Shown: positions 27,861-64,000, counted from the first letter of the stretch. The stretch: DNA of 64,000 nt from Bugula neritina (GCA_964035545.1 OZ037769.1:15096633-15160632), one strand, 5' to 3'. Numbers and translations are program-made. The notes: generated from the letters alone by a model not told the origin.

Positions 27861-29923
27861 ATCACCTTTGCAACATAATTCAATAATTGCATGGTCAAGC
27901 AGAATAAACTACAATTAACAGCAACAACAGTGTAATAGTTGCGTAGAAAAGTTGTACTGCAAAAAACTAAAAGAATGCAAAATCTATAAATGTGTGCTAC
28001 CAAGTAAATGCTGAACAGACATCATAAAATAGTGTACGAAATACAAACTATTAAACTTACCTGTTGATCTAATGCAGCCAAAACCTTAAGCTTAGAGTAG
28101 TGGAATGGTGCTGTTCGATGTTGAAATGCTACAAGTAGCTAAGATGACTCAAATTCTTGCCTTTAGGAGTAAGAGGCCTCAGCTCAGTTTCAACAAAACT
28201 TCCAATAATCTCAACGGATGCGCTCAATTAGGAGCCACAACAAAGCACACCCATGTCATTTTAGTAAACTCTAAAAAATGAACGAAAATAAAACTGTTAG
28301 AGAGTAAACAGAGAAACATATAGTGATGGGGGAAAAACCTGTCAGCAAAGGTTAGATACACTCATAGCCATAACACGAAGAAAAAGATAATGAATAACAA
28401 CCTATTCAAGATGACACAAGAAACCAAACAAATTTCTTTGACTAAAAAATATAATTAAATACTATATTACTTGGCAAAAAATATTTGTTTTGAACAACGT
28501 ATTATTGGGAAGAATTGCCAGTGTCTTAAATTTTGAGATTAAAATTTCTGCCTTATAGCGGAAATAGAGAGGCAATCAATAGTGTACAAAACATGTTTTC
28601 AGTCATTGGCTGTTGACTAAATTGACAAAGTTAAAGAAAGCTTCCATATCATTATTTATTTTGTTCTCAAGTGTGTGGTTACAGTTTCATGAGTCAGAAA
28701 TATAATTATTTGAGATATGAAATCAAATGTAGTCAAAAGAGTGTCATACAATTTAAAATGTAGTAATAGAGCTTTGACAATAATTTCTTCTGCTAAGTAA
28801 AACAGGTACCATTATGTGCTACTTATCTTTTAGAGATGAACATCAAGGATGTTGAAAACAAATAGTTGTAAATTACAGCAAATACCTTTCTACTTACCTA
28901 ACCAGAGAAAATAAGTTTTCAACCTTGCATGCACTCAGCTGGTTTTCAATGTTTGGATCAGTGACATCTTTATAACTGATAGCAGCATTATGTGATAGCT
29001 TTAGGAATTGTTACCTTAAATCTAAATTATATAGAACAAGAAGTGCAAAAATATGGCATTAGTACTCATTGCACAATACACACTTGCTAGAGTAGCTAAT
29101 CTAGCATCACATTAATTTAAGAAAGACAAAATTTTATTACTGTTCACAAATGATGAATATTAAAATTTGAATAATTAGACAAATTACCAATGATATTGAT
29201 GTTAGTTCAAACATTACTAATGGTAAACACCAAAATACTAATAGGAATAGTCATGTTAACATCAATTAGAAAAGTAAAGATAATTTGAAAATGAGACAGT
29301 TTATAGGTCTAACTCTTATAGTTGACAAGCAATTACAGGGCAGTCATATTGATGTAGGCTACCCTCAAAATGTAGCACTTTAAAAATATTAAAAAGACAG
29401 CACATATAAGAACATAATCTTAAAAATAGGCATATGTGACACCTATATTTTGATTAACAAAGAAATCTTCTTTACTTTATTAATCTAGCTCATATAATGG
29501 TATTCTGTCTTAGTATGTTATTTTAATACTTGAAATCTAATCAGCTACAGAAAAGTACTTCAATTCAAAGGCCTTCATAATTATTCTTTAGTTTGCTATT
29601 TAAATAGTCAGTAAGGTTGATGAATAAAATAAAAGTTAGTAAAGTAAAAACTAAATAAATTGAGATAAATATCTCCACTCTAAGGTTATAATCCTTATAA
29701 ATTAACATTTTAATACTCCTGTTATCCTTAGGTATAGTTGTTAGCATTTTAACTATGAGCTCGAAGCCAAATGTCAGTATCAGCATCCCCATTACATTGA
29801 CTAAGACTGACTTTATAACCCTCAAGCTGTGGCACTCAATTTCTATAAGTAGTAACTAATAACAAATATAAAATTATTTATTTGCTACTGATAGTGATAA
29901 TAATAATAATTAAAAATAATAAT

Positions 29924-32888: not shown

Positions 32889-33929
32889 TGCAGTTGGTTC
32901 TATTATTAGATTAGCATATCGATTATGACTTTTCGATTGCCACCCTGATACTATGAGTAAAATGTACAAGCATACGTGAAAGTATAGATATGATCATAAG
33001 TATAAAAATAGGTATAAGTATAAATATAAATATAGGTACAAGTATAAAACGAATGATTATATTATTAATAATATTAGTCAGTGATACCTATAACCGTAAT
33101 GGTTTTTAGACTTACAGTTATCATTAACATTAGCTGAGTAATATGATTAGTTAAAATAATGGTATTCATTATCATATCATAGTTATAAGTTATAACTCTA
33201 GTCTCTAAAGAGCAACAGCAAGTGTAATTGGGATATTCATATTAAATTTCATATTCACATAGTGAAATGTTTATGTTATGAACTAATTTATTCCTTCAAC
33301 ATTTAACTATAAATATGATTAACACTAACTTTGACCAGCAGTATTACTAAAAGAAACGTATTACAAATATAAGATAATAAAATTCTAGTAGTAGGACTAA
33401 TAGTATTACTAGGTCCAGTATTATTCTTGTTATCTTATTCATCATTCATGAGTTATCAAATTTAAAATTACTACTTATTAGCATCAGCATATAAAAAGTA
33501 AGATCATTAGGAATAATTATCATGAGGTATGATCTATGATTTGCCTTATCCATATATAGTTTAATATCAATATGATATATTATTATTGCTGATAGTCTAT
33601 GTTATAGTTAAATTTATACTTATCTTTACAGTTACCTATAGTAGCACTTATTAGTTATTTGTGGTAGCCAAACTAATGTTTAATATTAATAAATTAAACT
33701 GAGTATCATAAAAGTGTTACTAAGAATTTTAATTATAATCGTAATGGTGATCATATTACTTTATTATAATTAGTATATTTTATCATTAATGCTAAACTGA
33801 GTTAATGTATATACTTTGAGTTTTACTATTACTCATTATATTTACACTTATAGTAAAACTAAATATGTAAAAGTTATACTTATACTATTATTATTCGTAT
33901 TTCATTAGACTTACATCTAAGATCGCAGT

Positions 33930-33991
33930 CCTATTACTACTACCACTGATACTAGTACTACAACTAGTACTAGTACTGCTACTAGTACTAG

Positions 33992-34023
<32 letters not shown>

Positions 34024-34090
34024 ATAGTACTGTTACTACTACTACTACTACTAGTACTACTACTAGGTCTACTACTGTACCAGTACAACT
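33930..34090. repeat. Degenerate (CTA/GTA)n trinucleotide repeat (copy at about 62015-62170)
   Basis: Directly visible; source of the poly-Ser ORFs. Confidence 0.92.
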
Positions 34091-35902
34091 ACAAACTTTG
34101 AAAATAACTGCAAGAAAGGTATGACTTACTCTTTTTCTTAGTCTTACTGTGACTCTCAGTCGTAATGTAAAATAAAATTGTGAACTGTAAAGTTAAACCC
34201 AAGGCTGAAATTTATTTAATTAAATTTAGACAATCTGAATCATTGGCTCAATCCTTGAGTTTGACTATTACTATTATTATTAGTGCTACGATTGCGATTA
34301 TCATTGGCATTATGCCATTATGATTATCATTATGATTGTAATTGTGGTAATTCTAACATTAATTATAATCATAAATTAAAAGGTAATGATTAATGATAAT
34401 TATTTTCATTTTGTAATCATAATGATAATCATAATGATGTAAATTTTGATGTAAAACCAAAATACTAAAACTAAAAGTAAAAGTTATAAAATTAAATGAT
34501 AAAATATTATAATGATAATTATTATATTTATTATATTATTATTGAATATATTATTTCATTAGAAAATAGGTTGCAGCTTAGCATGATTAAAATTCAGTAA
34601 AAATTAGTTTACCAACAGCAAACATGCATGCGTCTTGTCAACATTCAATTCGTAGTGTCATAGCGAAGCCAGATTACTGGTAGTACGACTACTAGAACTA
34701 CTACTACTAGTGATGGATTACAGATCCTTGGCGATTTTAGCTGTGAGTGACCTTCACCTCACATTCTCGTCATGTGCGCGGCATTAGACTAAGTAGAGGG
34801 TATGAAGCACTGAGCTGGAAAAGAAAGAATATATTTTAATTATAGGTAATACTAATAGTAATATAATTTATGGTAATATATAGGTAATATTATTGAGTTC
34901 ATTGGTATGGAGTATAGACCTATCACTGATAGTATCAGTATCAACTACCACTTACGTACTACTTCAACTTATAACTTACCTTCAACTCAAACTCAAACTG
35001 AAACTGCTTGGAATCATTTGTCTTTGATCATATTGGCATTGTCATTGTGATTGTAATAACTATTAATATTTTTAGTTCAACATCAATGCCGAACATATTG
35101 TAATAACTAATAAGATAATCATAAGGTTGATATATTTTGCTAATACTAATACTAATACTAATAGTTATAGTAATAGTTATAGTAATTCAGTGTCACTCTC
35201 ACTCTGGTGGAGTGAGACTCAGACTTAGAGTTAGAGACAGAGTGAGTCCGAGTAAGTCTGAGTGTTGGTAATAGTAATAGTCATATAAATTTAAATTATA
35301 TTTACTTATTTCTAGCAATCACAATGGCAATAGTTGTAGTAACTTTCACTTACTCTTAAATCATTGAACCTGAACTAAAAGTAAAATTAAGCATTATGAT
35401 TATCATTATGATTATACCTATGATTTTATTATGTTTAAATTAAAAATCAATATCATGATAATATCATAGTGATAGACATATTATTGATAAATGATAATAT
35501 AAAAGTAATTTGATAAATTATACATTGATTTTGAATTAAGGTGATACTGATACTAGACCGGTACTGAAAGTGATAGTAATACTAATAGTAATAGTAATAG
35601 TCATATAAATTTAAGTTATATTTACTCATTACCGGCAATCACAATGGCAATAGTAACTTAAACTGTAACAGTAATGGTATGGGTATGTTTGAAATTGTCA
35701 CTATCAGTATTGCTATGAATCAAAATATAATGCTATCATACCAATAATTTAAAATAATATTACAAAGCTTCAGTAGCAACTTTTACTTGTACCAGTTTGG
35801 AATTTTGAATTATACATATTCTTAGTTAAAGTCTTCAAGTTTATTGTCAAAATGAACTTGAAATTAAAGACTTAGTAGTAAAAATTAAACTAAGACTGAC
35901 TG

Positions 35903-38465: not shown

Positions 38466-39278
38466 TGTAAGTGACTAAGATTAAAAATAAGTAATTTTAA
38501 ATATCGATTTAGTATTTTTCTTACTCTTTGTCTTAAAATTGACTTTTATTTTGCACCTACTTCTGGTCAATGATTCTTTTTTCTATTTATATTACTATTG
38601 CTATTAGTATAATTGACTTAAATTTAATAATAGATATGATTATATCTTTATAAATGTGATATTTGATTTTATGAATAGTAATTCGAAAACTCTTTGGTAT
38701 TATTTATTTTTGATCATTGTAGTTATTATCATTATATTTGTATAATAATTATGATTATCAAATTCAATATCGATATTTGTATTATGGTATGGATATCTGC
38801 CTCCATCCCATGTTCTGTTTTGCAGTGCCTTTTTACATTCACGTCTAGCTTCACATTGCGATGGTCATACTGATAGCACTTGGGGACAGTGATGAGCATA
38901 ATGATTATCACTAATATTAGGATTATCGTTATTAGGATTTAGAATAATTTAATAAACAAGCAACTTAAAACAAATGTTTTTACTAATATACATAATAATT
39001 ACTAATATAAATATACTACTATGAATATTATAATTATTATACTTTACAATTCAAAGTAAGATAATCATAATACGAACTGGTAAAACTAAATATAAAGTAA
39101 ATGTAATAATACTAATAGTAGTTATCCATTCCCCTTTGGTTTCACATACTAATAATTGGAAACCTCTGTCCTAATATTATTTCTATTAATATTGCTCAAA
39201 GTTTGATCCCTATTTAATTTTATAGTTCACTCACCAGCTACATAATTTTATTAAAATACATGTGGTATTGGTTATAGT

Positions 39279-39629
39279 TTAGTAATTTGTTCAATTACTG
39301 AGCGTGAGTTATTTACTTGCGTATAGTTAGCTGGTTATTCTGTTATCAATTACTAAGGTAGCTGTCGAGTAATTATATTTATTATCCACAATAAAGCATA
39401 AACCAAACATCACATCAAATTATCCTATACAAGAGTCAACTACTAACACATGTTACTACTACAAGCCTCCGCTTACAACAACGTGATATAATGTTAATAA
39501 CCCGGGAAGTGTCACGTGACTCGGAAGCATATCTTCCGGAGCTGCTAATTGGTTGCTACATAAGAGTCTAAGTATTCCAAGAGTAGGGAGAGGGCGATTC
39601 CTGTATTTGTACTTGCACTACTCACTACA
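39279..39629 (-). repeat. 3' LTR, copy 1
   Basis: Direct repeat of 44190-44541; preceded on the minus strand by the polypurine tract GGGGGGGACGG. Confidence 0.96.
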
Positions 39630-39920
39630 CCGTCCCCCCCAGCAGAAAGCCCTACTTTCTGATAACACAATAAAAAAACATAATGAAAAACCATACAATA
39701 ATCCAAAAAGGAAAATATACATAAGTAAACCCACAAAGAGTAAGAAAAGAAATAGTTAAACACGACAACATTTACATTAGAAGACAACAGGGTGATCGAT
39801 CACACACATCTAGTCAGCTATTAAGAGAGAGGGTGCTTACCAGCACGCGGGCCAATGTCGGAGCGCTCGTCACATTCCAAACGAGCTATAGCTCAACGAA
39901 GGTGCCTACCCCAGGCATTC

Positions 39921-40973
39921 TCATTGGTTGGACTCTGCTTCTTGTAGCGACCGTGCTCTGTGTCGAGCCTGTCGGGCCCGTAGCCGCCTCTTCAGTCGCC
40001 CTACTGAGTCCTTCAACTGGTATAGACCTGTCGTCGTATCCAGCAAGTCAGGGGCAAGTTGTGTGAACTCGGCTTGCAGTCTTAGAAGCCGCTCTTCTAC
40101 GTTAGCCAGCTGGCTAGGCCTTGGTGGGGTTATAGGGGTCTCCGTTAGACGGGATATGGTTGTTTCTTCTACTTCTGGGGTGTTGCTAGGGTTGACGGGG
40201 GTAGGAGGTGGGCCCTGAACCATAGGGGACTTATGGCGGGCAGATAGTAACAGTACGTGAAACCCTGACGTTAGTGCGGCCAGGGTAATAGCCTTCCTGA
40301 TGACTGGCTTGATGGCATCCAGGTATAGGGGGAAACTGTCTTCATCAACAGTGTGGTTCTCTCCGGCGAAGCAGCTTAGCTTATGTACTGTCACGGGATA
40401 TGGGTAGACGTCGTGGAACCCGCAGGGACAGAAGTGGAGTAGGAAATGGGCGTCTACATGTAAACGCAGGGAGCGGTGCGACGGGCACTCCTCAAAGCAG
40501 ACCTGGCAGGTTTGGTGTGGTCCACTGGGTCCCCAGGCTTCTTCAATTCTCCTCTCTGTCGTGGGTGACACCCAACGGTGTCGTCGGCGGAGTACTACTG
40601 GTATGCCATTCTCCATTACAGGCTCTTCTTCCATAGACAGAGAGGTTGGCTGGTCCCGTGACCGGGAGGTGGTCACTCGAGTGTGATCTGAAAGAGTAGC
40701 AGTGTTAAAGATTATACACTGAGACACCGTCGGCGTGTACAGCCTGATCGGTACTCTGTTCAGTTACACTCGTGAGATTCAGGCTAATGAATAGTTGATG
40801 GAGAACACACTCGCTATGACAGATTATTTAAAATCAAAGTCGACGTGTATTCCCACCACTGTTTATCATTATCGAATCTCCAGCTAGCTAGTGTAGCTAA
40901 GCTGACTGATGCAGTCTAGTTATCGTACCAAAAACATAATTAACTCACCCTTCGATCCAGAATAGTAAGACAT
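39921..40973 (-). CDS. ORF3: two-exon gene (40973-40949 + 40687-39921, 263 aa) for a C2H2 + C2HC zinc-finger, Pro-linker, coiled-coil/basic-tail protein
   Basis: CCAAAATG start, AAGG|GTGAGT donor, CTCTTTCAG|AT acceptor, in-frame join MSYYSGSK-D-HTRV; CQVC-x12-H-x3-H and CPC-x12-H-x3-C; heptad leucines then RLKRRLRARQARHRAR. Confidence 0.8.
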
Positions 40974-40996
40974 TTTGGAATGAGAGTGGTAACTGA

Positions 40997-43255
40997 TTAC
41001 TGTTTACTGGCACGTCTACTCTCGACTGCATCAACATAGGAAAAGACCGGACAGCGTGGTTGTGAAACGTGACTAGGGCTTTTTACTTCCAGCGGATGAA
41101 TCTCGTGTGAGATTCCGCCGAGGCAAAAGTTGAGATTCTCGTGGTGATCACAACTCCCACGGCTCTTTGCCTGTTTTCCCATGCGAGGCCTCTCTAGACT
41201 TTTGTTACTGCCGCTTATACCGCGGTCACGTACACAGTCTCTGAGACACGCTGGAAGTTGCCTAGTGTGTGGTCCTGGTCCTATGTTGGTATCTCCTTGC
41301 GGAGCCCCTTCCACGGGGGATTTTTGCACTTCCGGACCGGTTTCTGGTTCCGGAAGTGGTGATGATGGCAGGCTTGACGTTGAGGGCGGTGAGCGCACTT
41401 TCAAGGACGGAAGTGGCCTTTCTCGCCTCGCCAAGTCTTCCTGACGTGTCATGGAGGTGTTTCCCGCCAGGTTGACAGTCTCCGCCTGCCGAGACCTTCT
41501 CGCACAATGCGTCTGCCGCCCCACTTCACCAGGGAGACGGCTATGCTTGTTGGTCTGGCAGACTTTGCACCGTCTCACTCTGCGTCGGATATCCCGTTCC
41601 ATGTTAGGCCAGTACCACCGGAGTTGTAGCTTGGTGACCACCCCTTGGACTCCTCCGTGAGTCTCCTCGTGGGTGTCTTGTATCAACTTCCGGCGGATGG
41701 CAACTGGGCAGACAACCCTCTTCCTGGCTGGCTGTCTGCTGTTGGCGGCCAAGGTCATGGTTAGCAGACCCTCTGGCCCGACCCGCAGAGAGCTCCAACG
41801 TTGACAGTACAGCCGTAACTCGGCGCATCCCTGTCGCCGTTGTGTACTACTGGGTCGTCGCCCCTCCTGTTTCGCTCGGTACACGTCGGCTACCACCCCA
41901 GGAAGGCATTCCTGGAGCTTCGGCAGCTCCCTAACGTTACCAGCCCATACAGGTTTGGCGCGGAGGCTCTGGGCAGCCTCCGGGGGCGTGTCAGCCCTCT
42001 GTTGGAGTGGCTGAGCAGGGGCGGTCCTCGCCGCCCGTGGTACCTCACGGCAGCCTGCTCTATTTAGGCGGGCTCCGTGGTCTGTGTGGCTTAACGCCTC
42101 ACTGTACCCATGTGGCAACCTAGCCATAGCCTGGCGCTTCCCGTTGCCTGTGCAGCCACGCGTCCCTGGAGGAGGGGAGGCGTGGGTTGGGACGGTCCTC
42201 CGCCCTCGAGACGGGCTCTGCTGAGGACCTTCCGTCGTAGCTCCCGACGACGGCCCAATGGCTTCCTCCTGGACAGGATGGAAGCGACCCAGCATGGATC
42301 TGGGTGGTAGGTCTACTGTCTCTGAGAAGGGGTTGACACACTGCACTGAGATCTCTCCTTGCCCCGTGAGCCGGCTAAAACTACGGGCAAGTTGGACTCT
42401 CGAGTGCGTACTTTCGACAACTCCCAGCTTAGAGGTTTGGCCACCGTCTACCTTGCAGCGGACGGTAGCCCGGGAGTGGCCTGGTATAGTACAGCTCCGT
42501 ACTACCTGCACTGCTCCCGCTAGAGGACGACCAAACTTATCGACACAAGCGAGCTCCTTGTCGCCCATGATTATCGCAGATTTACTGAAATCGATGCGAC
42601 AACCGTGTCGTTGTAAGAATGGCATCCCGAGGATAGCATCCTCGTTGAGCTGCCCGACGATAAACGTCTCTTGGATGGCCTGGTTACGGACGTAACCAGT
42701 TAGCTCAATAATGCCGTAGAAGGGGATGCACGACCCGTCTGCCAGGGTGCCATGATCCCCCTCATACGGTGCCAACCCGTCCTTGACCTTAGCGCTGAGG
42801 GTGTCAAAGAACTGACGGCTAAGGAGGTTGGTGGTGCAGCCGGAGTCCAGGAGGAAGTTGGCAGGCTTGCCGGCTAGCTTCCCTGGTAGGAAGTAGCTAC
42901 TTCCGTGCGGCTGCAATTGAGTGTGCCGTGGTTGCACCTCCCTCGCTGTGGGTCGAGGGGTCCACGGTTGGCGGCGACTATTGACCAGCTGCCGAGGTTG
43001 GGGCGGTACGCCTTGCGGCGCTTGTACCGTTTCCCTCGCAGGCTCTGTGGTCAACCGTCTGCCGGCTCCGTGTTGGTGCCAGAGTGGCGTAGAGGACCCA
43101 GGCGGCGAGTGGCTTGAGCCTACTTGCCGCGGGGGTCGCCACTTCACAGCATCTCCGCGCGGCGCCCAGCGGGGCGACAGACGCGCGGGCCTCCCTGGGT
43201 GATTCACAGACGGCCCGCAGGAGGTGGGAACATCTGCGGGCCGGGGTAGTTTAAC
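40997..43255 (-). CDS. pol: Internally deleted pol (aspartic protease + integrase HHCC zinc-binding domain; no RT, RNase H or DDE core), likely reached by -1 frameshift from gag
   Basis: FLLDSGCTTNLLS...AILGMPFL protease; H-EET-HGG...YWPNM...CKVC; no YxDD motif; integrase core reduced to a TVNLAG remnant. Confidence 0.85.
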   Translation of the reverse strand, partial: VKLPRPADVPTSCGPSVNHPGRPARLSPRWAPRGDAVKWRPPRQVGSSHSPPGSSTPLWHQHGAGRRLTTEPARETVQAPQGVPPQPRQLVNSRRQPWTPRPTAREVQPRHTQLQPHGSSYFLPGKLAGKPANFLLDSGCTTNLLSRQFFDTLSAKVKDGLAPYEGDHGTLADGSCIPFYGIIELTGYVRNQAIQETFIVGQLNEDAILGMPFLQRHGCRIDFSKSAIIMGDKELACVDKFGRPLAGAVQVVRSCTIPGHSRATVRCKVDGGQTSKLGVVESTHSRVQLARSFSRLTGQGEISVQCVNPFSETVDLPPRSMLGRFHPVQEEAIGPSSGATTEGPQQSPSRGRRTVPTHASPPPGTRGCTGNGKRQAMARLPHGYSEALSHTDHGARLNRAGCREVPRAARTAPAQPLQQRADTPPEAAQSLRAKPVWAGNVRELPKLQECLPGVVADVYRAKQEGRRPSSTQRRQGCAELRLYCQRWSSLRVGPEGLLTMTLAANSRQPARKRVVCPVAIRRKLIQDTHEETHGGVQGVVTKLQLRWYWPNMERDIRRRVRRCKVCQTNKHSRLPGEVGRQTHCARRSRQAETVNLAGNTSMTRQEDLARRERPLPSLKVRSPPSTSSLPSSPLPEPETGPEVQKSPVEGAPQGDTNIGPGPHTRQLPACLRDCVRDRGISGSNKSLERPRMGKQAKSRGSCDHHENLNFCLGGISHEIHPLEVKSPSHVSQPRCPVFSYVDAVESRRASKQ

Positions 43256-44154
43256 CCTGGTGGGAGTTGAGGGCAGTTTCTCTGGAAATGTCCTGGCCTT
43301 CCGCATTCCCAGCAGAAGTGGTGCCCCATGCCTGGTGATTGTACCTGCGGCCCGCAAGGCTCACGGGCAGTATCTACCTGGCTTGGGGAGGCTAGTGTGG
43401 TGACCAGTTTATCTAGCATGTCAGTCATCTGTGAGATTTTTGACGCTAGTGACATCTGGTTCACACTAGCCACCGCGGAGGGTTCCGCATTTAATTCGGT
43501 GTGAGCAGTAGAGTGCTCCGTGGTCACCTGGCGGGAGGCCACGCGGTTGCGGTGCATATGAGTCGCCAAGAGATAGGCTTCTCCCACCGCAAGTGCATCT
43601 TCGACTGTGGTGACTCCCCTCGCTTGGAGTTGATGGTGGAGCCCCAAGTCGTTGATGGACTGCACGAAGGCATCATAGGTATACCTCTCACGGTGTACCG
43701 GAGGCAGATCGCGGAATGCAATCTGCGCTAATGGGTACACCGTGGCAGCGTGCTCTTCTAGTGACGTGTGAGGATCACGCCGCATCCTCTGTAGACGGGC
43801 CCGCGCATCTATGGGAGAGATGCCAAAACGGGCCCGCAGGGAAGCAAAGATTCCGTCTATGTCAGGTCCAGCTCCGTACGGCTTAGCTTTGCCCGTCAGC
43901 GCCATCCTGAGCTTCAGCAACGCCACCCTTGGCGGGCATTCTGCAATCTCCATCACATCCTGGAATTCTTGGATGAACTGCTCCACTGCTTCTTCGCCGG
44001 TGAAGTTGGGTGCCTTCAGCCGGTATCTATCTTCACCATGCTCTCTAAGAATTCTCACTTCTTCATCGAACACCACTGGTTCCACAGGTATATCAACATT
44101 ATCTCTCTCACCTTCATTCAGTGGAATGGGTAGCTCCGTGCCGTCTTCTGCCAT
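43204..44154 (-). CDS. gag: Gag (capsid-like region + CCHC zinc knuckle)
   Basis: APNFTGEEAVEQFIQEF capsid-like start; CWECGRPGHFQRNC knuckle; first ATG (MAEDG) at 44154, just after the PBS. Confidence 0.9.
   Translation of the reverse strand: MAEDGTELPIPLNEGERDNVDIPVEPVVFDEEVRILREHGEDRYRLKAPNFTGEEAVEQFIQEFQDVMEIAECPPRVALLKLRMALTGKAKPYGAGPDIDGIFASLRARFGISPIDARARLQRMRRDPHTSLEEHAATVYPLAQIAFRDLPPVHRERYTYDAFVQSINDLGLHHQLQARGVTTVEDALAVGEAYLLATHMHRNRVASRQVTTEHSTAHTELNAEPSAVASVNQMSLASKISQMTDMLDKLVTTLASPSQVDTAREPCGPQVQSPGMGHHFCWECGRPGHFQRNCPQLPPGLNYPGPQMFPPPAGRL
43211..43255 (-). promoter_or_regulatory. Programmed -1 ribosomal frameshift signal (G_UUA_AAC + hairpin)
   Basis: Heptamer at 43255-43249 in the gag frame, 5-nt spacer, perfect 10-bp stem CGGCCCGCAG/CTGCGGGCCG with 13-nt loop; pol is in the -1 frame. 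Confidence 0.8.
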
Positions 44155-44170
44155 GACTGCTATACGCAAG

Positions 44171-44188
44171 ATCCCACCGCTGCCACCA
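44171..44188 (-). promoter_or_regulatory. Primer-binding site complementary to the tRNA-Leu 3' end
   Basis: TGGTGGCAGCGGTGGGAT one base inside the 5' LTR; complement of ...ATCCCACCGCTGCCA-CCA, the 3' end I recall for metazoan tRNA-Leu(AAG/TAG). Confidence 0.85.
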
Positions 44189-44189
44189 C

Positions 44190-44541
44190 TGTAGTAATTT
44201 GTTCAATTACTGAGCGTGAGTTATTTACTTGCGTATAGTTAGCTGGTTATTCTGTTATCAATTACTAAGGTAGCTGTCGAGTAATTATATTTATTATCCA
44301 CAATAAAGCATAAACCAAACATCACATCAAATTATCCTATACAAGAGTCAACTACTAACACATGTTACTACTACAAGCCTCCGCTTACAACAACGTGATA
44401 TAATGTTAATAACCCGGGAAGTGTCACGTGACTCGGAAGCATATCTTCTGGAGCTGCTAATTGGTTGCTACATAAGAGTCTAAGTATTCCAAGAGTAGGG
44501 AGAGGGCGATTCCTGTATTTGTACTTGCACTACTCACTACA
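44190..44541 (-). repeat. 5' LTR, copy 1
   Basis: 352 bp, TGTAGT...ACTACA termini, followed by the PBS on the minus strand. Confidence 0.96.
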
Positions 44542-46467
44542 ATAGTACTAGTGAAACTTGAAGTTGAATAGCATGCTTATTACTCACTGCTCTTTGCTTA
44601 CATTATTAGGGTTACTCTTTAGTCTTAGAGGTACCCTAACATAAACTTGAAAGCTGGAGGTAGTACTAGTCTAGTGCTGTGTTAATCCTACACCGTTGAC
44701 TTATCAACACTGTGACTATAATTATGACTCCTAAGTCAAAGTCATTTTCATATAGTAGTAATCACTATGACAGACTGAAAGTCAGGAAGACTAAATATAA
44801 TGGTAAAGTGTGTAAGAATAAATCATACTCAATCAATTACTTTTAGTTTTATTACCAGTGTTGGGTCAACTTTCAGAATAAAGAATAAATATAATTATAA
44901 AGATAAATGGATAAAAATTCCAATCATGGTTTAATGTGCCTATTTTAAGCTGTTAATTTAATTACTATAATATAAGTGCTCAAAATACAACTTTTGTTTT
45001 TCATAATTATGTTTTAATTTAATACAGATACCATAGTATCATATACAGTAGAATCAGTTGTATCTTATTTAATAATGAAGTAACTTATTGGAGCTTTCAC
45101 AATTATTAATTATTTACTTGTTAGTCTTTGAACTGGGACAATGTTTGAAACTTGAAGTAGAATGAAGTTTGATTTCAGTTACCGCAATGGTATCTGCAGT
45201 CACAATAGGAATACGCATATAACTATGTTTATATTTGTGAAAAATATATAGTCAAAAGTAGATAAGGTAATAGTAATTATAATTGGTTTCACTTTTAATA
45301 TATTCCTATAAACTGGAAAATAGACAGAAGCATTTAATCATGAAAGTAAACCTAGTGGAAGTAAATCAATTCACTAAGTATAGTAAAATATTTACTATTC
45401 AGTAAGTTTATTTACTTTAGTTAATTGTACTTGATTATTTCTGTCGGTTTTTCAGTTGATTTTTCTACCTTTTGCTATAGCATATCAAACTACCACAAAG
45501 TCATGCTTCCGTATTACAATTATAAACATAGTGTTACTGTGTAATGTTATAGTAATGTAATAGTAATATTTGGATCATTGTAAGTATTTCTGTTGTTGTA
45601 CTGATTGATAAATATTTTTTAGCTTGCATGGATATTTGCAACGATCAAGATGTCATTTGAACCTGGACTGGAATAAAGATGGCAAATCGAGAAGCTAGGT
45701 ACAATTATTCTGCAGAAAGAAACTTGGTAAGCAAAAATAAGCTGCAGCATTAAGCCGTAAGCAATATGACGATGAACTTTGCTTGATTTTGATTGACCTT
45801 AAAATATCTGGTCACCTTTCACCAACGTGGTCCTGCGCGGGTGGCGGGTGACCTTAAAATGTCTGTTGCACGTAAAATAAATTTTGTGACAGTCAAAAGT
45901 ATGCTGATCTTTTTCGTATTTCAGTGCATCGGTGTCTTAGCTTAAGAGCTGAACCCAACAATTATGATCTAAAGCTGTTTTTACTAGAAAGTGATTTTAC
46001 TGTCTTTCTGATTATTCTTGGTTTTTCAGCTTGATGAATTGAATAAATGGATTTGATTTCGGGTATTATGTAATGGATGAAAGAAATTTTTCTTAAATTT
46101 GTACTGAGCAATTTTTGCTATTGCTATGATGTTTAGTGATAAAATTGCACCCTTAATAACCCTGAAAATTATCATTACTAGCATTTGTTTATGTTCATTT
46201 TTAGGAAATTAAAATGAAGACACAACTCACCGATGCTATCTCACTGTGCCTGCATGCAGTTTATCTAAAAAGGTACTCCTATTAGCTGGCTCTTGCCCAA
46301 TACCTGGTTGTCTCTGTAACTATTTCTTGCTCGCAGATGAGTTTTTTGAACTTGACATTTTATTGATTTTGAAAGTTATAGTGAGCTTTGAAGTTGCTAG
46401 CATCGTTTTTAAAGACTTGCTGCAGTTTTTATCAACATTTTTTAAGTCAATGGTGTTAGTTTGGAAG

Positions 46468-55711: not shown

Positions 55712-56946
55712 TGCAGTTGGTTCTATTATTAGATTAGCATATCGATTATGACTTTTCGATTGCCACCCTGATACTATGAGTAAAATGTACAAGCATACGT
55801 GAAAGTATAGATATGATCATAAGTATAAAAATAGGTATAAGTATAAATATAAATATAGGTACAAGTATAAAACGAATGATTATATTATTAATAATATTAG
55901 TCAGTGATACCTATAACCGTAATGGTTTTTAGACTTACAGTTATCATTAACATTAGCTGAGTAATATGATTAGTTAAAATAATGGTATTCATTATTATAT
56001 CATAGTTATAAGTTATAACTCTAGTCTCTAAAGAGCAACAGCAAGTGTAATTGGGATATTCATATTAAATTTCATATTCACATAGTGAAATGTTTATGTT
56101 ATGAACTAATTTATTCCTTCAACATTTAACTATAAATATGATTAACACTAACTTTGACCAGCAGTATTACTAAAAGAAGCGCATTACAAATATAAGATAA
56201 TAAAATTCTAGTAGTAGGACTAATAGTATTACTAGGTCCAGTATTATTCTTGTTATCTTATTCATCATTCATGAGTTATCAAATTTAAAATTACTACTTA
56301 TTAGTGTAGTAATTTGTGCAATTACTGAGCGTGAGTTATTTACTTGCGTATAGTTAGCTGGTTATTCTGTTATCAATTACTAGGGTAGCTGTCGAGTAAT
56401 TATATTTATTATCCACAATAAAGCATAAACCAAACATCACATCAAATTATCCTATACAAGAGTCAACTACTAACACATGTTACTACTACAAGCCTCCGCT
56501 TACAACAACGTGATATAATCTTAATAACCCGGGAAGTGTCACGTGACTCGGAAGCATATCTTCCGGAGCTGCTAATTGGTTGCTACATAAGAGTCTAAGT
56601 ATTCCAAGAATAGGGAGAGGGCGATTCCTGTATTTGTACTTGCACTACTCACCACACCGTCCCCCCCAGCAGAAAGCCCTACTTTCTGATAACACAATAA
56701 AAAACATAATGAAAAACCATACAATAATCCAAAAAGGAAAATATACATAAGTACACCCACAAAGAGTAAGAAAAGAAATAGTTAAACACGACAACGTTTA
56801 CATTAGAAGACAACAGGGTGATCGATCACACACATCTAGTCAGCTATTAAGAGAGAGGGTGCTTACCAGCACGCGGGCCAATGTCGGAGCGCTCGTCACA
56901 TCCTAAACGAGCTATAGCTCAACGAAGGTGCCTACCCCAGGCATTC

Positions 56947-57994
56947 TCATTGGTTGGACTCTGCTTCTTGTAGCGACCGTGCTCTGTGTCGAGCCTGTCG
57001 GGCCCGTAGCCGCCTCTTCAGTCGTCCCACTGAGTCCTTCAACTGGTATAGACCTGTCGTCGTATCCAGCAAGTCAGGGGCAAGTTGTGTGAACTCGGCT
57101 TGCAGTCTTAGAAGCCGCTCTTCTACGTTAGCCAGCTGGCTAGGTCTTGGTGGGGTTATAGGGGTCTCCGTTATACGGGATATGGTTGTTTTTTCTACTT
57201 CTGGGGTGTTGCTAGGGTTGACGGGAGTAGGAGGTGGGCCCTGAACCATAGGGGACTTATGGCGGGCAGATAGTAACAGTACGTGAAACCCTGACGTTAG
57301 TGCGGCCAGGGTAATAGCCTTCCTGATGACTGGCTTGATGGCATCCAGGTATAGGGGGAAACTGTCTTCATCAACAGTGTGGTTCTCTCCGGCGAAGCAG
57401 CTTAGCTTATGTACTGTCACGGGATACGGGTAGACGTCGTGGAACCCGCAGGGACAGAAGTGGAGTAGGAAATGGGCATCCACATGTAAACGCAAGGAGC
57501 GGTGTGACGGGCACTCCTCAAAGCAGACCTGGCAGGTTCGGTGTGGTCCACTGGGTCCCCAGGCTTCTTCAATTTTCCTCTCTGTCGTGGGTGACACCCA
57601 ACGGTGTCGTCGGCGGAGTACTACTGGTATGCCATTCTCCATTACAGGCTCTTCTTCCATAGACAGAGAGGTTGGCTGGTCCCGTGACCGGGAGGTGGTC
57701 ACTCGAGTGTGATCTGAAAGAGTAGCAGTGTTAAAGATTATACACTGAGACACCGTCGGCGTGTACAGCCTGACCGGTACTCTGTTCAGTTACACTCGTG
57801 AGATTCAGGCTAATGAATAGTTGATGGAGAACACACTCGCTATGACAGATTATTTAAAATCAAAGTCGACGTGTATTCCCACCACTGTTTATCATTATCG
57901 AATCTCCAGCTAGCTAGTGTAGCTGACTGATGCAGTCTAGTTATCGTACCAAAAACATAATTAACTCACCCTTCGATCCAGAATAGTAAGACAT
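56947..57994 (-). CDS. ORF3 zinc-finger/coiled-coil gene, copy 2 (exons 57994-57970 + 57713-56947)
   Basis: Same ATG, donor and acceptor as copy 1; a 5-bp indel falls in the intron; 4 aa differences. Confidence 0.8.
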
Positions 57995-58017
57995 TTTGGA
58001 ATGAAAGTGGTATCTGA

Positions 58018-60276
58018 TTACTGTTTACTGGCACGTCTACTCTCGACTGCATCAACATAGGAAAAGACCGGACAGCGTGGTTGTGAAACGTGACTAGGGC
58101 TTTTCACTTCCAGCGGATGAATCTCGCGTGAGATTCCGCCGAGGCAAAAGTTGAGATTCTCGTGGTGATCACAACTCCCACGGCTCTTTGCCTGTTTTCC
58201 CATGCGAGGCCTCTCTAGACTTTTGTTACTGCCGCTTATACCGCGGTCACGTACACAGTCTCTGAGACACGCTGGAAGTTGCCTAGTGTGTGGTGCTGGT
58301 CCTATGTTGGCATCTCCTTGCGGAGCCCCTCCCACGGGGGGTTTTTGCACTTCCGGACCTGTTTCTGGTTCCGGAAGTGGTGATGATGGCAGGCTTGACG
58401 TTGGGGGCAGTGGGCGCACTTTCAAGGACGGAAGTGGCCTTTCTCGCCTCGCCAAGTCTTCCTGACGTGTCATGGAGGTGTTTCCGGCCAGGTTGACAGT
58501 CTCCGCCTGCTGAGACCTTCTCGCACAATGCGTCTGCCGCCCCGCTTCACCAGGGAGACGGCTATGCTTGTTGGTCTGGCAGACTTTGCACCGTCTCACT
58601 CTGCGTCGGATATCCCGTTCCATGTTAGGCCAGTACCACCGGAGTTGTAACTTGGTGACCACCCCTTGGACTCCTCCGTGAGTCTCCTCGTGAGTGTCTT
58701 GTATCAACTTCCGGCGGATGGCAACTGGGCAGACAACCCTCTTCCTGGTGGGCTGTCTGCTGTTGGTGGCCAAGGTCATGGTTAGCAGACCATCTGGCCC
58801 GACCCGCAGAGAGCTCCAACGTTGACAGTACAGCCGTAACTCGGCGCATCCCTGTCGCCGTTGTGTACTACTGGGTCGTCGCCCCTCCTGTTTCGCTCGG
58901 TACACGTCGGCTACCACCCCAGGAAGGCATTCCTGGAGCTTCGGCAGCTCCCTAACGTTACCAGCCCATACAGGTTTGGCGCGGAGGCTCTGGGCAGCCT
59001 CCGGGGGCGTGTCAGCCCTCTGTTGAAGTGGCTGAGCAGGGGCGGTCCTCGCCGCCCGTGGTACCTCACGGCAGCCTGCTCTATTTAGGCGGGCTCCGTG
59101 GTTTGTGTGGCTGAACGCCTCACTGTACCCATGTGGCAACCTAGCCATAGCCTGGCGCTTCCCGTTGCCTGTGCAGCCACGCGTCCCTGAAGGAGGGGAG
59201 GCGTGGGTTGGGACGGTCTTCCGCCCTCGAGACGGGCTCTGCTGAGGACCTTCCGTCGTAGCTCCCGACGACGGCCCAATGGCTTCCTCCTGGACAGGAT
59301 GGAAGCGACCCAGCATGGATCTGGGTGGTAGGTCTACTGTCTCTGAGGAGGGGTTGACACACTGCACTGAGATCTCTCCTTGCCCCGTGAGCCGGCTAAA
59401 ACTACGGGCAAGTTGGACTCTCGAGTGCGTACTTTCGACAACTCCCAACTTAGAGGTTTGGCCACCGTCTACCTTGCAGCGGACGGTAGCCCGGGAGTGG
59501 CCTGGCATAGTACAGCTCCGTACTACCTGCACTGCTCCCGCTAGAGGACGACCAAACTTATCGACACAAGCGAGCTCCTCGTCGCCCATGATTATCGCAG
59601 ATTTACTGAAATCGATGCGACAACCGTGTCGTTGTAAGAATGGCATCCCGAGGATAGCATCCTCGTTGAGCTGCCCGACGATAAACGTCTCTTGGATGGC
59701 CTGGTTACGGACGTAACCAGTTAGCTCAATAATGCCGTAGAAGGGAATGCACGACCCGTCTGCCAAGGTGCCATGATCCCCCTCGTACGGTGCCAACCTG
59801 TCCTTGACCTTAGCGCTGAGGGTGTCAAAGAACTGACGGCTAAGGAGGTTGGTGGTGCAGCCGGAGTCCAGAAGGAAGTTGGCAGGCTTGCCGGCTAACT
59901 TCCCTGGCAGGAAGTAGCTACTTCCGTGCGGCTGCAATTGAGTGTGCCGTGGTTGCACCTCCCTCGCTGTGGGTCGAGGGGTCCACGGTTGGCGGCGACT
60001 ATTGACCAGCTGCCGAGGTTGGGGCGGTACGCCTTGCGGCGCCTGTACCGTTTCCCTCGCAGGCTCTGTGGTCAACCGTCTGCCGGTTCCGTGTTGGTGC
60101 CGGAGTGGCGTAGAGGACCCAGGTGGCGAGTGGCTGAAGCCTACTTGCCGCGGGGGTCGCCACTTCACAGCGTCTCCGCGCGGCGCCCAGCGGGGCGACA
60201 GACGCGCGGGCCTCCCTGGGTGATTTACAGACGGCCCGCAGGAGGTGGGAACATCTGCGGGCCGGGGTAGTTTAAC
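58018..60276 (-). CDS. pol: Internally deleted pol (protease + integrase HHCC only), copy 2
   Basis: Same length and open frame as copy 1; frameshift heptamer 60276-60270 and hairpin 60264-60232 conserved. Confidence 0.85.
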   Translation of the reverse strand, partial: VKLPRPADVPTSCGPSVNHPGRPARLSPRWAPRGDAVKWRPPRQVGFSHSPPGSSTPLRHQHGTGRRLTTEPARETVQAPQGVPPQPRQLVNSRRQPWTPRPTAREVQPRHTQLQPHGSSYFLPGKLAGKPANFLLDSGCTTNLLSRQFFDTLSAKVKDRLAPYEGDHGTLADGSCIPFYGIIELTGYVRNQAIQETFIVGQLNEDAILGMPFLQRHGCRIDFSKSAIIMGDEELACVDKFGRPLAGAVQVVRSCTMPGHSRATVRCKVDGGQTSKLGVVESTHSRVQLARSFSRLTGQGEISVQCVNPSSETVDLPPRSMLGRFHPVQEEAIGPSSGATTEGPQQSPSRGRKTVPTHASPPSGTRGCTGNGKRQAMARLPHGYSEAFSHTNHGARLNRAGCREVPRAARTAPAQPLQQRADTPPEAAQSLRAKPVWAGNVRELPKLQECLPGVVADVYRAKQEGRRPSSTQRRQGCAELRLYCQRWSSLRVGPDGLLTMTLATNSRQPTRKRVVCPVAIRRKLIQDTHEETHGGVQGVVTKLQLRWYWPNMERDIRRRVRRCKVCQTNKHSRLPGEAGRQTHCARRSQQAETVNLAGNTSMTRQEDLARRERPLPSLKVRPLPPTSSLPSSPLPEPETGPEVQKPPVGGAPQGDANIGPAPHTRQLPACLRDCVRDRGISGSNKSLERPRMGKQAKSRGSCDHHENLNFCLGGISREIHPLEVKSPSHVSQPRCPVFSYVDAVESRRASKQ

Positions 60277-61175
60277 CCTGGTGGGAGTTGAGGGCAGTTT
60301 CTCTGGAAATGTCCTGGCCTTCCGCATTCCCAGCAGAAGTGGTGCCCCATGCCTGGTGATTGTACCTGCGGCCCGCAAGGCTCACGGGCAGTATCTACCT
60401 GGCTTGGGGAGGCTAATGTGGTGACCAGTTTATCTAGCATGTCAGTCATCTGTGAGATTTTTGACTCTAGTGACATCTGGTTCACACTAGCCACCGCGGA
60501 GGGTTCCGCATTTAATTCGGTGTGAGCAGTAGAGTGCTCCGTGGCCACCTGGCGGGAGGCCACGCGGTTGCGGTGCATATGAGTCGCCAAGAGATAGGCT
60601 TCTCCCACCGCAAGTGCATCTTCGACTGTGGTGACTCCCCTCGCTTGGAGTTGATGGTGGAGTCCCAAGTCGTTGATGGACTGCACGAAGGCATCATAGG
60701 TATACCTCTCACGGTGTACCGGAGGCAGATCGCGGAATGCAATCTGCGCTAGTGGGTACACCGTGGCAGCGTGCTCTTCTAGTGACGTGTGAGGATCACG
60801 CCGCATCCTCTGTAGACGGGCCCGCGCATCTATGGGAGAGATGCCAAAACGGGCCCGCAGGGAAGCAAAGATTCCGTCTATGTCAGGTCCAGCTCCGTAC
60901 GGCTTAGCTTTGCCCGTCAGCGCCATCCTGAGCTTTAGCAACGCCACCCTTGGCGGCCATTCTGCAATCTCCATCACATCCTGGAATTCTTGGATGAACT
61001 GCTCCACTGCTTCTTCGCCAGTGAAGTTGGGCGCCTTCAGCCGATATCTATTTTCACCATGCTCTCTAAGAATTCTCACTTCTTCATCTAACACCACTGG
61101 TTCCACAGGTATATCAACATTATCTCTCTCACCTTCATTCAGTGGAATGGGTAGCTCCGTGCCGTCTTCTGCCAT
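60225..61175 (-). CDS. gag: Gag, copy 2
   Basis: 5 aa differences from copy 1; CCHC knuckle intact. Confidence 0.9.
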   Translation of the reverse strand: MAEDGTELPIPLNEGERDNVDIPVEPVVLDEEVRILREHGENRYRLKAPNFTGEEAVEQFIQEFQDVMEIAEWPPRVALLKLRMALTGKAKPYGAGPDIDGIFASLRARFGISPIDARARLQRMRRDPHTSLEEHAATVYPLAQIAFRDLPPVHRERYTYDAFVQSINDLGLHHQLQARGVTTVEDALAVGEAYLLATHMHRNRVASRQVATEHSTAHTELNAEPSAVASVNQMSLESKISQMTDMLDKLVTTLASPSQVDTAREPCGPQVQSPGMGHHFCWECGRPGHFQRNCPQLPPGLNYPGPQMFPPPAGRL

Positions 61176-64000
61176 GACTGCTATACGCAAGATCCCACCG
61201 CTGCCACCACTGTAGTAATTTGTGCAATTACTGAGCGTGAGTTATTTACTTGCGTATAGTTAGCTGGTTATTCTGTTATCAATTACTAGGGTAGCTGTCG
61301 AGTAATTATATTTATTATCCACAATAAAGCATAAACCAAACATCACATCAAATTATCCTATACAAGAGTCAACTACTAACACATGTTACTACTACAAGCC
61401 TCCGCTTACAACAACGTGATATAATCTTAATAACCCGGGAAGTGTCACGTGACTCGGAAGCATATCTTCCGGAGCTGCTAATTGGTTGCTACATAAGAGT
61501 CTAAGTATTCCAAGAATAGGGAGAGGGCGATTCCTGTATTTGTACTTGCACTACTCACCACAATTAGCATCAGCATATAAAAAGTAAGATCATTAGGAAT
61601 AATTATCATGAGGTATGATCTATGATTTGCATTATCCATATATAGTTTAATATCAATATGATATATTATTATTGCTGATAGTCTATGTTATAGTTAAATT
61701 TATACTTATCTTTACAGTTACCTATAGTAGCACTTATTAGTTATTTGTGGTAGCCAAACTAATGTTTAATACTAATAAATTAAACTGAGTATCATAAAAG
61801 TGTTACTAAGAATTTTAATTATAATCGTAATGGTGATCATATTACTTTATTATAATTATTATATTTTATCATTAATGCTAAACTGAGTTAATGTATATAC
61901 TTTGAGTTTTACTATTACTCATTATATTTACACTTATAGTAAAACTAAATATGTAAAAGTTATACTTATACTATTATTATTCGTATTTCATTAGACTTAC
62001 ATCTAAGATCGCAGTCCTATTACTACTACCACTGATACTAGTACTACAACTAGTACTAGTACTGCTACTAGTACTAGTACTACTACTACTACTACTACTA
62101 CTACTAATAGTACTGTTACTACTACTACTACTAGTACTACTACTAGGTCTACTACTGTACCAGTACAACTACAAACTTTGAAAATAACTGCAAGAAAGGT
62201 ATGACTTACTCTTTTTCTTAGTCTTACTGTGACTCTCAGTCGTAATGTAAAATAAAATTGTGAACTGTAAAGTTAAACCCAAGGCTGAAATTTATTTAAT
62301 TAAATTTAGACAATCTGAATCATTGGCTCAATCCTTGAGTTTGACTATTACTATTATTATTAGTGTTACGATTGTGATTATCATTGGCATTATGCCATTA
62401 TGATTATCATTATGATTGTAATTGTGGTAATTCTAACATTAATTATAATCATAAATTAAAAGGTAATGATTAATGATAAGTATTTTCATTTTGTAATCAT
62501 AATGATAATCATAATGATGTAAATTTTGATGTAAAACCAAAATACTAAAACTAAAAGTAAAAGTTATAAAATTAAATGATAAAATATTATAATGATAATT
62601 ATTATATTATTATTGAATATATTATTTCATTAGAAAATAGGTTGCAGCTTAGCATGATTAAAATTCAGTAAAAATTAGTTTACCAACAGCAAACATGCAT
62701 GCGTCTTGTCAACATTCAATTCGTAGTGTCATAGCGAAGCCAGATTACTGGTAGTACGACTACTAGAACTACTACTACTAGTGATGGATTACAGATCCTT
62801 GGCGATTTTAGCTGTGAGTGACCTTCACCTCACATTATCGTCATGTGCGCGGCATTAGACTAAGTAGAGGGTATGAAGCACTGAGCTGGAAAAGAAAGAA
62901 TATATTTTAATTATAGGTAATACTAATAGTAATATAATTTATGGTAATATATAGGTAATATTATTGAGTTCATTGGTATGGAGTATAGACCTATCACTGA
63001 TAGTATCAGTATCAACTACCACTTACGTACTACTTCAACTTATAACTTACCTTCAACTCAAACTGAAACTGCTTGGAATCATTTGTCTTTGATCATATTG
63101 GCATTGTGATTGTCATTGTGATTGTAATAACTATTAATATTTTTAGTTCAACATCAATGCCGAACATATTGTAATAACTAATAAGATAATCATAAGGTTG
63201 ATATATTTTGCTAATACTGATACTAATACTAATAGTTATAGTAATAGTTATAGTAATTCAGTGTCACTCTCACTCTGGTGGAGTGAGACTCAGACTTAGA
63301 GTTAGAGACAGAGTGAGTCCGAGTAAGTCTGAGTGTTGGTAATAGTAATAGTCATATAAATTTAAATTATATTTACTTATTTCTAGCAATCACAATGGCA
63401 ATAGTTATAGTAACTTTCACTTACTCTTAAATCATTGAACCTGAACTAAAAGTAAAATTAAGCATTATGATTATCATTATGATTATACCTATGATTTTAT
63501 TATGTTTAAATTAAAAATCAATATCATGATAATATCATAGTGATAGACATATTATTGATAAATGATAATATAAAAGTAATTTGATAAATTATACATTGAT
63601 TTTGAATTAAGGTGATACTGATACTAGACCGGTACTGAAAGTGATAGTAATACTAATGGTAATAGTAATAGTCATATAAATTTAAGTTATATTTACTCAT
63701 TACCGGCAATCACAATGGCAATAGTAACTTAAACTGTAACAGTAATGGTATGGGTATGTTTGAAATTGTCACTATCAGTATTGCTATGAATCAAAATATA
63801 ATGCTATCATACCAATAATTTAAAATAATATTACAAAGCTTCAGTAGCAACTTTTACTTGTACCAGTTTGGAATTTTGAATTATACATATTCTTAGTTGA
63901 AGTCTACAAGTTTATTGTCAAAATGAACTTGAAATTAAAGACTTAGTAGTAAAAATTAAACTAAGACTGACTGTAAGTGACTAAGATTAAAAATAAGTAA

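Follow-up and report, generated by a model that had tools for sequence, protein, structure and literature searches.

The window analysed here, a stretch of 64,000 nucleotides of Bugula neritina DNA (GCA_964035545.1, OZ037769.1:15096633-15160632), carries two copies of an LTR (long terminal repeat) element of the Ty3/Gypsy type, each about 5.26 kb long and on the minus strand, at 39278-44541 (copy 1) and 56305-61562 (copy 2). An earlier model-generated reading of the same DNA, hereafter the original prediction, placed the end of copy 1 correctly and its start one base too late. Both copies show the hallmarks of their group, namely LTR ends of the form TG...CA, a primer binding site (PBS), a polypurine tract (PPT) and a 5-bp target-site duplication (TSD), with a terminal base altered in one of the four LTRs. 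The PBS may be tRNA-Leu-like. The copies are 98.2% identical (87 substitutions in 5,273 columns, or 1.7%), and in both of them, as first described, gag (316 aa), the pol frame (787 codons from stop to stop) and a third open reading frame, ORF3, are open. The coding parts have 55-60% G+C with little CpG depletion (observed/expected 0.66-0.79), in surroundings of roughly 30% G+C. The features are collected in Table 1.

Table 1. Features of the Ty3/Gypsy element in the window; positions are counted from the first letter of the window, and rows refer to copy 1 unless marked. RT, reverse transcriptase; pLDDT, predicted local distance difference test.
Feature	Position	Strand	Basis
Unoccupied insertion site of copy 2, in the sister unit of the duplicated flank	33477..33481	.	
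TSD ATAGT	left 39273..39277, right 44542-44546	.	sequence
3' LTR, 352 bp; outer terminal CA changed to AA	39278..39629	-	sequence comparison
PPT, adjoining the 3' LTR	39630..39640	-	sequence
ORF3 main exon, with two zinc fingers (C2H2-like), a helical region and a C-terminal helix of 59 residues	39921..40687	-	AlphaFold
Likely ORF3 intron, 261 nt, GT-AG	40688..40948	-	consensus donor and acceptor
Likely ORF3 first exon, 25 nt, starting with ATG	40949..40973	-	frame, donor
pol frame, stop to stop, 787 codons, -1 relative to gag	40997..43360	-	
pol tail past the second deletion; predicted disordered, drifting, open	40997..41440	-	
Second deletion junction and beginning of the integrase core (TVNLAG, in relatives VDLVG)	41441..41479	-	
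Integrase N-terminal region: post-RNase H segment and HHCC (H564, H568, C598, C601)	41525..42007	-	Pfam PF17921 E 1e-14
Pre-RT remnant, up to first deletion junction (42008/42007); RT and RNase H gone	42008..42193	-	
Beta-rich domain after the protease, also in RT-bearing relatives	42251..42550	-	pLDDT 81-98
Aspartic protease core, catalytic DSG at D172	42551..42913	-	Pfam; Foldseek
gag, 316 aa, CCHC zinc knuckle	43204..44154	-	Pfam
Candidate -1 ribosomal frameshift signal	43212..43255	-	sequence, structure z -2.7
PBS, 18 nt, one base past the 5' LTR	44171..44188	-	sequence
5' LTR, TG...CA, 352 bp	44190..44541	-	sequence comparison
Copy 2, identical LTRs, TSD ATTAG at 56300-56304 and 61563-61567	56305..61562	-	

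Pfam finds a zf-CCHC domain in Gag and, in pol, an aspartyl protease and Integrase_H2C2 only. We cut hidden Markov models (HMMs) from an alignment of RT-bearing relatives and ran them on the six frames of both copies: the protease (E 1e-105), the pre-RT remnant (E 4e-9 to 2e-8), the linker that follows RNase H (E 1e-25) and the H2C2 domain (E 2e-27) are all matched, while the models for RT, RNase H and the integrase core reach E 3.4 at best. Nor did tblastn with 13 full-length relatives return any RT, RNase H or core segment; these relatives match the protease region and the integrase N-terminal region, with no alignment in between or further on. The remnants follow one another in the order protease, pre-RT, post-RNase H, integrase N, the order in the full-length relatives being protease, RT, RNase H, integrase, and beyond the second junction the catalytic core and C-terminal part of integrase are absent. 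The element therefore lacks the RT, RNase H and DDE core that characterise an autonomous Ty3/Gypsy element. The original prediction had reported this absence, and the profile search it proposed for a divergent RT in pol found none. It had also let the pre-RT remnant run almost directly into the HHCC domain, which needs correcting: about 110 codons lie between that remnant and the first zinc ligand, and most of these make up integrase's folded N-terminal part.

An AlphaFold model of pol aa 140-735 contains three confidently predicted blocks, the protease, the beta domain and a block ending in HHCC, with low-confidence linkers between them. The protease model resembles Ddi1 and retroviral proteases (Foldseek E 2e-9). 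Around 138 residues of the integrase N-terminal region are predicted to fold, ending in the HHCC helices (pLDDT 72-97), and the HHCC block matches the N-terminus of the integrase of the foamy virus PFV (E 7e-7). The segment at 42251-42550 is confidently predicted as an all-beta domain of some 100 residues, occurs in RT-less and RT-bearing relatives alike and has no Pfam name; our guess would be a dUTPase-like origin.

The deleted form extends well beyond the window. Among 47 homologues of 432-1378 aa, classed from their sequences (P0031 by its out-of-frame tail), 13 skip RT at the same place, 24 extend into RT and 10 stop short of the junction. On the left, the RT-less sequences break off at PTRR(LGPEKE) before RT, and on the right they resume at RDGGPS after RNase H; compared with these relatives, the window copies have lost another 31 codons across the junction. 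X4, X5 and X6, which come from two samples of one study, each have one contig over the RT junction with 60 extra bases, a multiple of three. The integrase core is likewise skipped in all six RT-less clusters that reach its start (P0014, P0015, P0020, P0023, P0025 and P0066), and both junctions recur in relatives only 53-64% identical. P0014, which comes from a separate source, has the same build at 98.5% identity; it was the only match in a search with the pol tail, and the parent sequence across the second junction is known from distant relatives only. Moreover, the pre-RT remnant carries derived changes common to the RT-less relatives. Among the matches listed, none of the loose contig ends at the element visibly enters RT.

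The protease trees point the same way. In a tree of 58 rows, from which 10 short rows were left out, the 13 RT-less rows and one unclassified fragment form a clade (support 100/96) within the RT-bearing group, with P0034 sister to the RT-less clade (100/98). In a second tree, of 22 chosen rows, the 10 RT-less rows again form one clade (99/97) inside the RT-bearing rows, and the approximately unbiased (AU) test rejects placing either pol1 (p 2.5e-6) or P0034 (p 0.009) with the nearest RT-bearing rows. The RT-less proteases have a mean mutual identity of 81%, so the loss is old relative to the insertions. From these comparisons we conclude that the loss arose once, in an old lineage, and that the window elements are not a broken pair. 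The shared junctions and the single RT-less clade bear out the non-autonomous lineage first proposed, and the worry that only two copies might exist is answered by many more than two with the same junctions.

The two insertions themselves are young. The 352-bp LTRs differ from each other at 2 of 352 positions in copy 1 and at none in copy 2 (pairs 0-0.6% apart), and five variants, at LTR positions 14, 79, 216, 306 and 349, are copy-specific and common to both LTRs of a copy; four of these had been described before, and all four are real. The TSDs differ as predicted (ATAGT and ATTAG). For copy 1 an empty site is provided by a contig of run X1 that links 39273 to 44542 with five letters in common, a contig that may represent a paralogous unit rather than an allele as the flank looks multi-copy. 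The units of the duplicated flank differ by 48/5,648 and 12/2,432 substitutions (<1%), less than the copies do. Since the divergence between copies exceeds that of both the flanks and the LTR pairs, each copy was reverse-transcribed from a template of its own, and, given the empty site in the sister unit, the insertions postdate the flank duplication. LTR variants, TSDs and empty sites thus agree with the separate reverse-transcription events originally proposed. Both copies were recently inserted; the data show recent insertion, not present-day activity. In run X1 the contig depth at the second junction is about 5,200, compared with 43-170 in lone contigs, which suggests tens of copies, though depth is in itself no copy number. 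Pieces of 151-241 bases that are 95-99% identical to the element occur at depth 2-3.5 in the marine plankton metagenome runs X2 and X3, which belong to different studies; this suggests that the host is marine.

Which parts of the element are maintained can be asked by comparing copy 1 with copy 2, using the observed transition bias. The protease core has 6 synonymous (S) and 2 non-synonymous (N) changes (p=0.017) and ORF3 has 9 S and 4 N (p=0.01), while Gag, protease and ORF3 pooled give 22 S / 11 N (omega 0.25, p=7.5e-5): between the copies, these three proteins are under purifying selection. In contrast, the pol linkers (aa 371-545) and tail together have 5 S / 17 N (omega 1.7; Fisher p 0.002 against the pooled set), the tail (aa 613-787) contributing 3 S / 10 N. 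The original prediction of mostly synonymous changes in the protease core and about two dozen amino-acid changes in pol fits this tally, with a pol total of 24. If aa 371-787 were neutral, the chance of meeting no stop would be 0.006-0.017 at a lineage divergence of 0.15-0.2; at the same divergence it would be 0.09-0.14 for aa 371-545 alone and 0.22-0.31 for the tail alone. Given several in-frame indels on the same path, a frame kept open by chance seems unlikely on these estimates, and the selected trait may be either the protein product or the act of translation.

Between relatives, identity in the pre-RT remnant is 82% among RT-bearing rows and 64% among RT-less rows, a fall that the protease does not show and that is expected after loss of RT. 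The HHCC region takes an intermediate place, with 68% identity among RT-less rows. Across six sequences, invariant columns make up 39% of the HHCC region, 40% of the post-RNase H segment and 23% of the pre-RT remnant; His, Cys and Trp columns are invariant in 8/8 cases in the HHCC region and 0/4 in the remnant, and HHCC is intact in every one of the six RT-less sequences that reach it. As a separate observation, the pre-RT remnant has shifted to GC-rich codons (GARP 0.43 vs 0.30 in RT-bearing relatives).

Expression of pol and of ORF3 may depend on two further signals. The gag and pol frames overlap, with pol in the -1 frame, and G_UUA_AAC at 43255-43249 is followed by a 6-nt spacer and then by a predicted structure (z -2.7), either a stem of 9 bp or, alternatively, a longer helix; for equine arteritis virus, G_UU(A) figures among the frameshift variants that work (PMC5009743). 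The peptide motif matching the slippery site is kept in six homologues, RT-less and RT-bearing, and the gag stop is preserved, as TGA in one copy and TAA in the other. Judging by these features, pol may be made by a -1 frameshift from gag.

ORF3, which had been taken to start within its open frame, likely starts instead at a spliced mini-exon just after the pol stop. Similarity among its relatives extends past the first in-frame Met, which some of them lack, to a point about 18 codons upstream, and this point coincides with the acceptor at 40688. The candidate first exon is in frame with the main exon and identical in both copies, its ATG lying 23 nt past the pol stop; the donor reads GTGAGT, the acceptor is pyrimidine-rich, and the only multi-base indel between the copies (5 bp, 40899-40903) sits inside the intron. 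A contig of X1, found after the acceptor had been predicted, joins 40687 to 40949 and skips 261 bases with GT...AG ends. This is one contig, with a short side of 29 letters and with intervening letters and run type not known, and a GT...AG end among the 15 joints listed would arise by chance about 13% of the time; the joint falls at the exact predicted base and in frame, which makes it stronger support than GT...AG alone. Should X1 be a DNA run, this contig would represent spliced RNA that had been copied into DNA. A second candidate donor, at 44111-44112, lies 43 nt into gag and would likewise keep the frame when joined to the ORF3 acceptor; none of the joints listed uses it.

The AlphaFold model of ORF3 (mean pLDDT 86) shows two beta-beta-alpha zinc fingers and a coiled-coil-like helix of 59 residues, and the eight zinc-ligand columns are conserved in 28-38 of the 30-39 aligned rows. 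There are 85 relatives at E 0.001 or better. Among 69 pol-related proteins the ORF3 profile matches the C-terminal extensions of four, P0002, P0007, P0008 and P0010 (E 1e-26 to 3e-16), so ORF3 belongs natively to this Gypsy group as an accessory protein and is in some members a part of Pol. It has no Pfam family, and Foldseek returned nothing at E 0.001 or better from PDB or the viral libraries; the top PDB rows are C2H2 proteins with E above 1, Atlas gave weak C2H2 leads, and the fold matches are to generic coiled coils only (Z 6.5 or less) with the zinc-finger part barely covered. With its zinc fingers and coiled coil, ORF3 is not evidently the particle protein first suggested; its likely role is that of a regulator or targeting factor that binds nucleic acid and is oligomeric. 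We also considered an env and rejected it, in view of the conserved Cys/His fingers, the long polar helix and the lack of a Pfam env hit, no dedicated signal-peptide or transmembrane predictor having been run.

How could an element with such a pol be mobilised? We consider it very probable that the copies belong to an old Ty3/Gypsy lineage without RT, RNase H and integrase core, which provides its own Gag, protease and ORF3 and takes RT and integrase from an intact sister family. In this scheme element RNA would yield Gag and, by the -1 frameshift, a Gag-protease-integrase-N protein; these proteins would build and mature particles that co-package helper Gag-Pol, helper RT would prime at the PBS and PPT, and helper integrase would insert the cDNA. 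The pol frame would stay open past the protease, with about an even chance, because the integrase N-terminal region keeps a zinc-dependent job in the particle; a somewhat less probable reason, in addition or instead, would be that translation has to continue as far as the pol stop, which lies immediately ahead of the ORF3 start and the splice junction. A more specific proposal, in which the integrase N-terminal region is retained as a module that joins helper integrase or RT, a split integrase capturing the enzymes, along with a spliced ORF3 coupled to the end of pol, strikes us as doubtful. Among RT-bearing relatives, the nearest candidates for a helper show 69-79% identity over the protease core and 64-67% over the integrase N-terminal region.

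Several observations weigh against helper dependence or against its details. The candidate helpers are known as protein sequences and are not placed in the same host; a metagenome scan with the protease alignment gave 122 pattern matches of which none was confirmed, and one with the RT alignment gave 79 loci, plus three in a viral collection, all of them distant (top 41-52%); the ORF3 profile matched none of these 82 loci. The selection test compares two copies only, and taken alone neither Gag (7 S / 5 N, p 0.06) nor HHCC (2 S / 0 N, p 0.10) is significant. P0034, the sister of the other RT-less rows, has lost the HHCC domain, and towards the outgroup P0001 the HHCC region is 51% identical in RT-less rows vs 64% in the sole close RT-bearing row, so that it evolves faster in the former; both points count against the recruitment of helper integrase first suggested for HHCC, and its conserved zinc ligands count for it. 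Against a required role for HHCC, P0016 exits the frame before the cysteines, and six others end or shift earlier. Finally, several RT-less database proteins leave the frame early, and the search favours long open frames.

The alternative that we take most seriously, while holding it less than evenly probable, keeps the helper and sees in the integrase N-terminal region no more than a passenger in slow decay. The frame would then stay open for reasons of translation or RNA, either because stop-restart couples it to ORF3 or because the RNA thereby avoids nonsense-mediated decay (the end of the pol stop is 48 nt from the splice junction). In favour of this, linkers and tail drift at omega 1.6-1.8 yet remain open, P0034 without HHCC is still in frame to the same C-terminus, and the 60-nt longer junction of X4-X6, which was not picked for ORF length, is also in frame; the ORF3 ATG lies at the same short distance from the pol stop in both copies. 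Against it, all eight His/Cys/Trp columns are invariant and the block is predicted to fold; the open tail is unremarkable by itself at the no-stop chance given above; ORF3 could equally come from a subgenomic RNA using the second in-frame donor at the 5' end of gag; and the case for decay escape is weakened by the gag stop, far upstream, where most ribosomes halt.

The remaining alternatives dispense with the lineage or with the helper. Internal-deletion copies of autonomous elements are common, and with only two copies in the window these could be sporadic products of an autonomous master; the same two junctions in relatives as distant as those above, the separation of the RT-less proteases from RT-bearing ones as one clade and the shared derived changes of the pre-RT remnant make this very improbable. 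Both copies sit in flank units 98.4-98.8% alike, as they would if one element had been multiplied by segmental duplication, gene conversion or misassembly, a reading left with hardly any probability by their different positions in the unit, different TSDs, an empty site for each, five copy-specific LTR variants and the 98.5% match of the same build from another source. Equally remote is autonomy, whether through a very divergent hidden RT or through integrase-free insertion by recombination. Nothing in the sequence speaks for it. Integrase-independent retrotransposition is known in yeast (cited in PMC13570524), and here the clean 5-bp TSDs point to integrase; the stretch from the pre-RT remnant to the folded integrase N-terminal region has room for about 20 codons only, the profiles find nothing and the linkers are predicted to be disordered.

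The helper-dependent lineage that we favour has counterparts in plants. The semi-autonomous GAG-Pro families RLG_Sabrina_SA and RLG_WHAM of wheat and barley, with RLG_Wilma as partner (PMC9744471, PMC5738225), are likewise long-lived, with intact Gag and protease, no RT or catalytic integrase and an inferred mobilisation by a partner, and they too have spread in deleted form as multiple copies, the equivalent here being two independent insertions, shared junctions and one clade. They differ from the window element in belonging to the plant Athila clade and in having one GAG-Pro ORF instead of a candidate -1 frameshift; the window element, for its part, has two separate in-frame deletions (RT/RNase H and core) and retains about 160 codons of integrase N region with HHCC. 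Gag-protease-only ATHILA account for 934 of 2,322 elements in Brassicaceae (bioRxiv 10.64898/2026.03.20.713144), and wheat Fatima subfamilies also have Gag and protease without RT or integrase (PMC6097303). These share with our element a recently active deletion derivative without RT, RNase H and integrase, and some ATHILA have an extra ORF of unknown function after pol, where the window element has its zinc-finger and coiled-coil ORF3; in ATHILA the loss took out a single block of some 3 kb and happened in several families, in the window lineage it took out two blocks, has one origin and left an integrase island between them. RLG_Quinta (with RLG_Cereba), which has Gag only plus a domain of unknown function and is tens of millions of years old (PMC11302176), and TR-GAG, defined as at most 4 kb and Gag only, without protease (PMC4350172), are also non-autonomous partners that supply Gag; the window element, at 5.26 kb and with a protease, falls outside TR-GAG. 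In sugar beet 28 families have GAG/PROT only and 15 have extra, partly decayed RT, RH, INT or chromodomain, 8 of those with GAG/PROT (PMC13570524); these remnants are described as decayed and patchy, and in-frame HHCC-only remnants may be among them.

Closer relatives are found in the RT-bearing Gypsy group (P0022, P0024, P0027, P0033, P0035, P0052 and, more distant, P0001-P0011), which continues into RT and, where the sequences are long enough, also has RNase H and the integrase core. The protease, beta domain, pre-RT segment, integrase N region and frameshift motif are common to this group and our element, and in the distant RT-bearing P0002, P0007, P0008 and P0010 the ORF3 homologue is fused to the end of Pol. 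An in-frame remnant with HHCC only, or an ORF3 of this kind, was not found in the literature searched, which comprised neither supplements nor subscription journals nor Repbase; within the same incomplete coverage we found no precedent for two in-frame deletions sparing the integrase N region, a single old origin in a host that is marine and probably an animal, and a spliced zinc-finger ORF3. Thus the Gag-protease-only design is already known in plants, and it is the kept integrase front end that sets the window lineage apart.

More generally, our analysis carries the semi-autonomous Gag-protease strategy, known chiefly from plants, over to a probable marine invertebrate, with evidence of one old origin and of selection that continues. 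As a deletion series made by nature, the lineage tells apart what an LTR element has to provide itself (Gag, protease, ORF3 and perhaps integrase N) and what it can borrow. Should the integrase N region turn out to be functional, it would be a natural case of retroelement integrase domains at work while split between parasite and helper. ORF3, moreover, marks an unnamed family of zinc-finger accessory proteins (85 relatives), Pol-fused in some Gypsy elements and free in others.

The surroundings of the element hold further repeats. The duplicated flank (27840-35902 / 50670-63973) may be a high-copy unit of about 17.6 kb: in X1, single contigs of the flank have a depth of about 8,400-9,100, vs 43-170 in lone contigs, and the empty-site contig one of 9,118. 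Both insertions lie in neighbouring units 17 kb apart, a hint of local hopping or target preference. A search of the window against Rfam gave no match. On the minus strand, at 17949-20785 and 4345-5890, lie two broken, stop-interrupted paralogues, 86% alike, of a gene that has TPR repeats and an N-terminus resembling a nucleotidyltransferase (DUF294, E 2e-6). A fragment of a non-LTR retrotransposon RT (RVT_1 E 2e-36), probably RTE-like, occupies 15098-16548 on the minus strand and adjoins a TA microsatellite; as a helper for an LTR element it is implausible. Within the duplicated unit, degenerate non-LTR RT-like fragments with a YVDD motif lie on the plus strand at 31262-32367 and 54141-55190.

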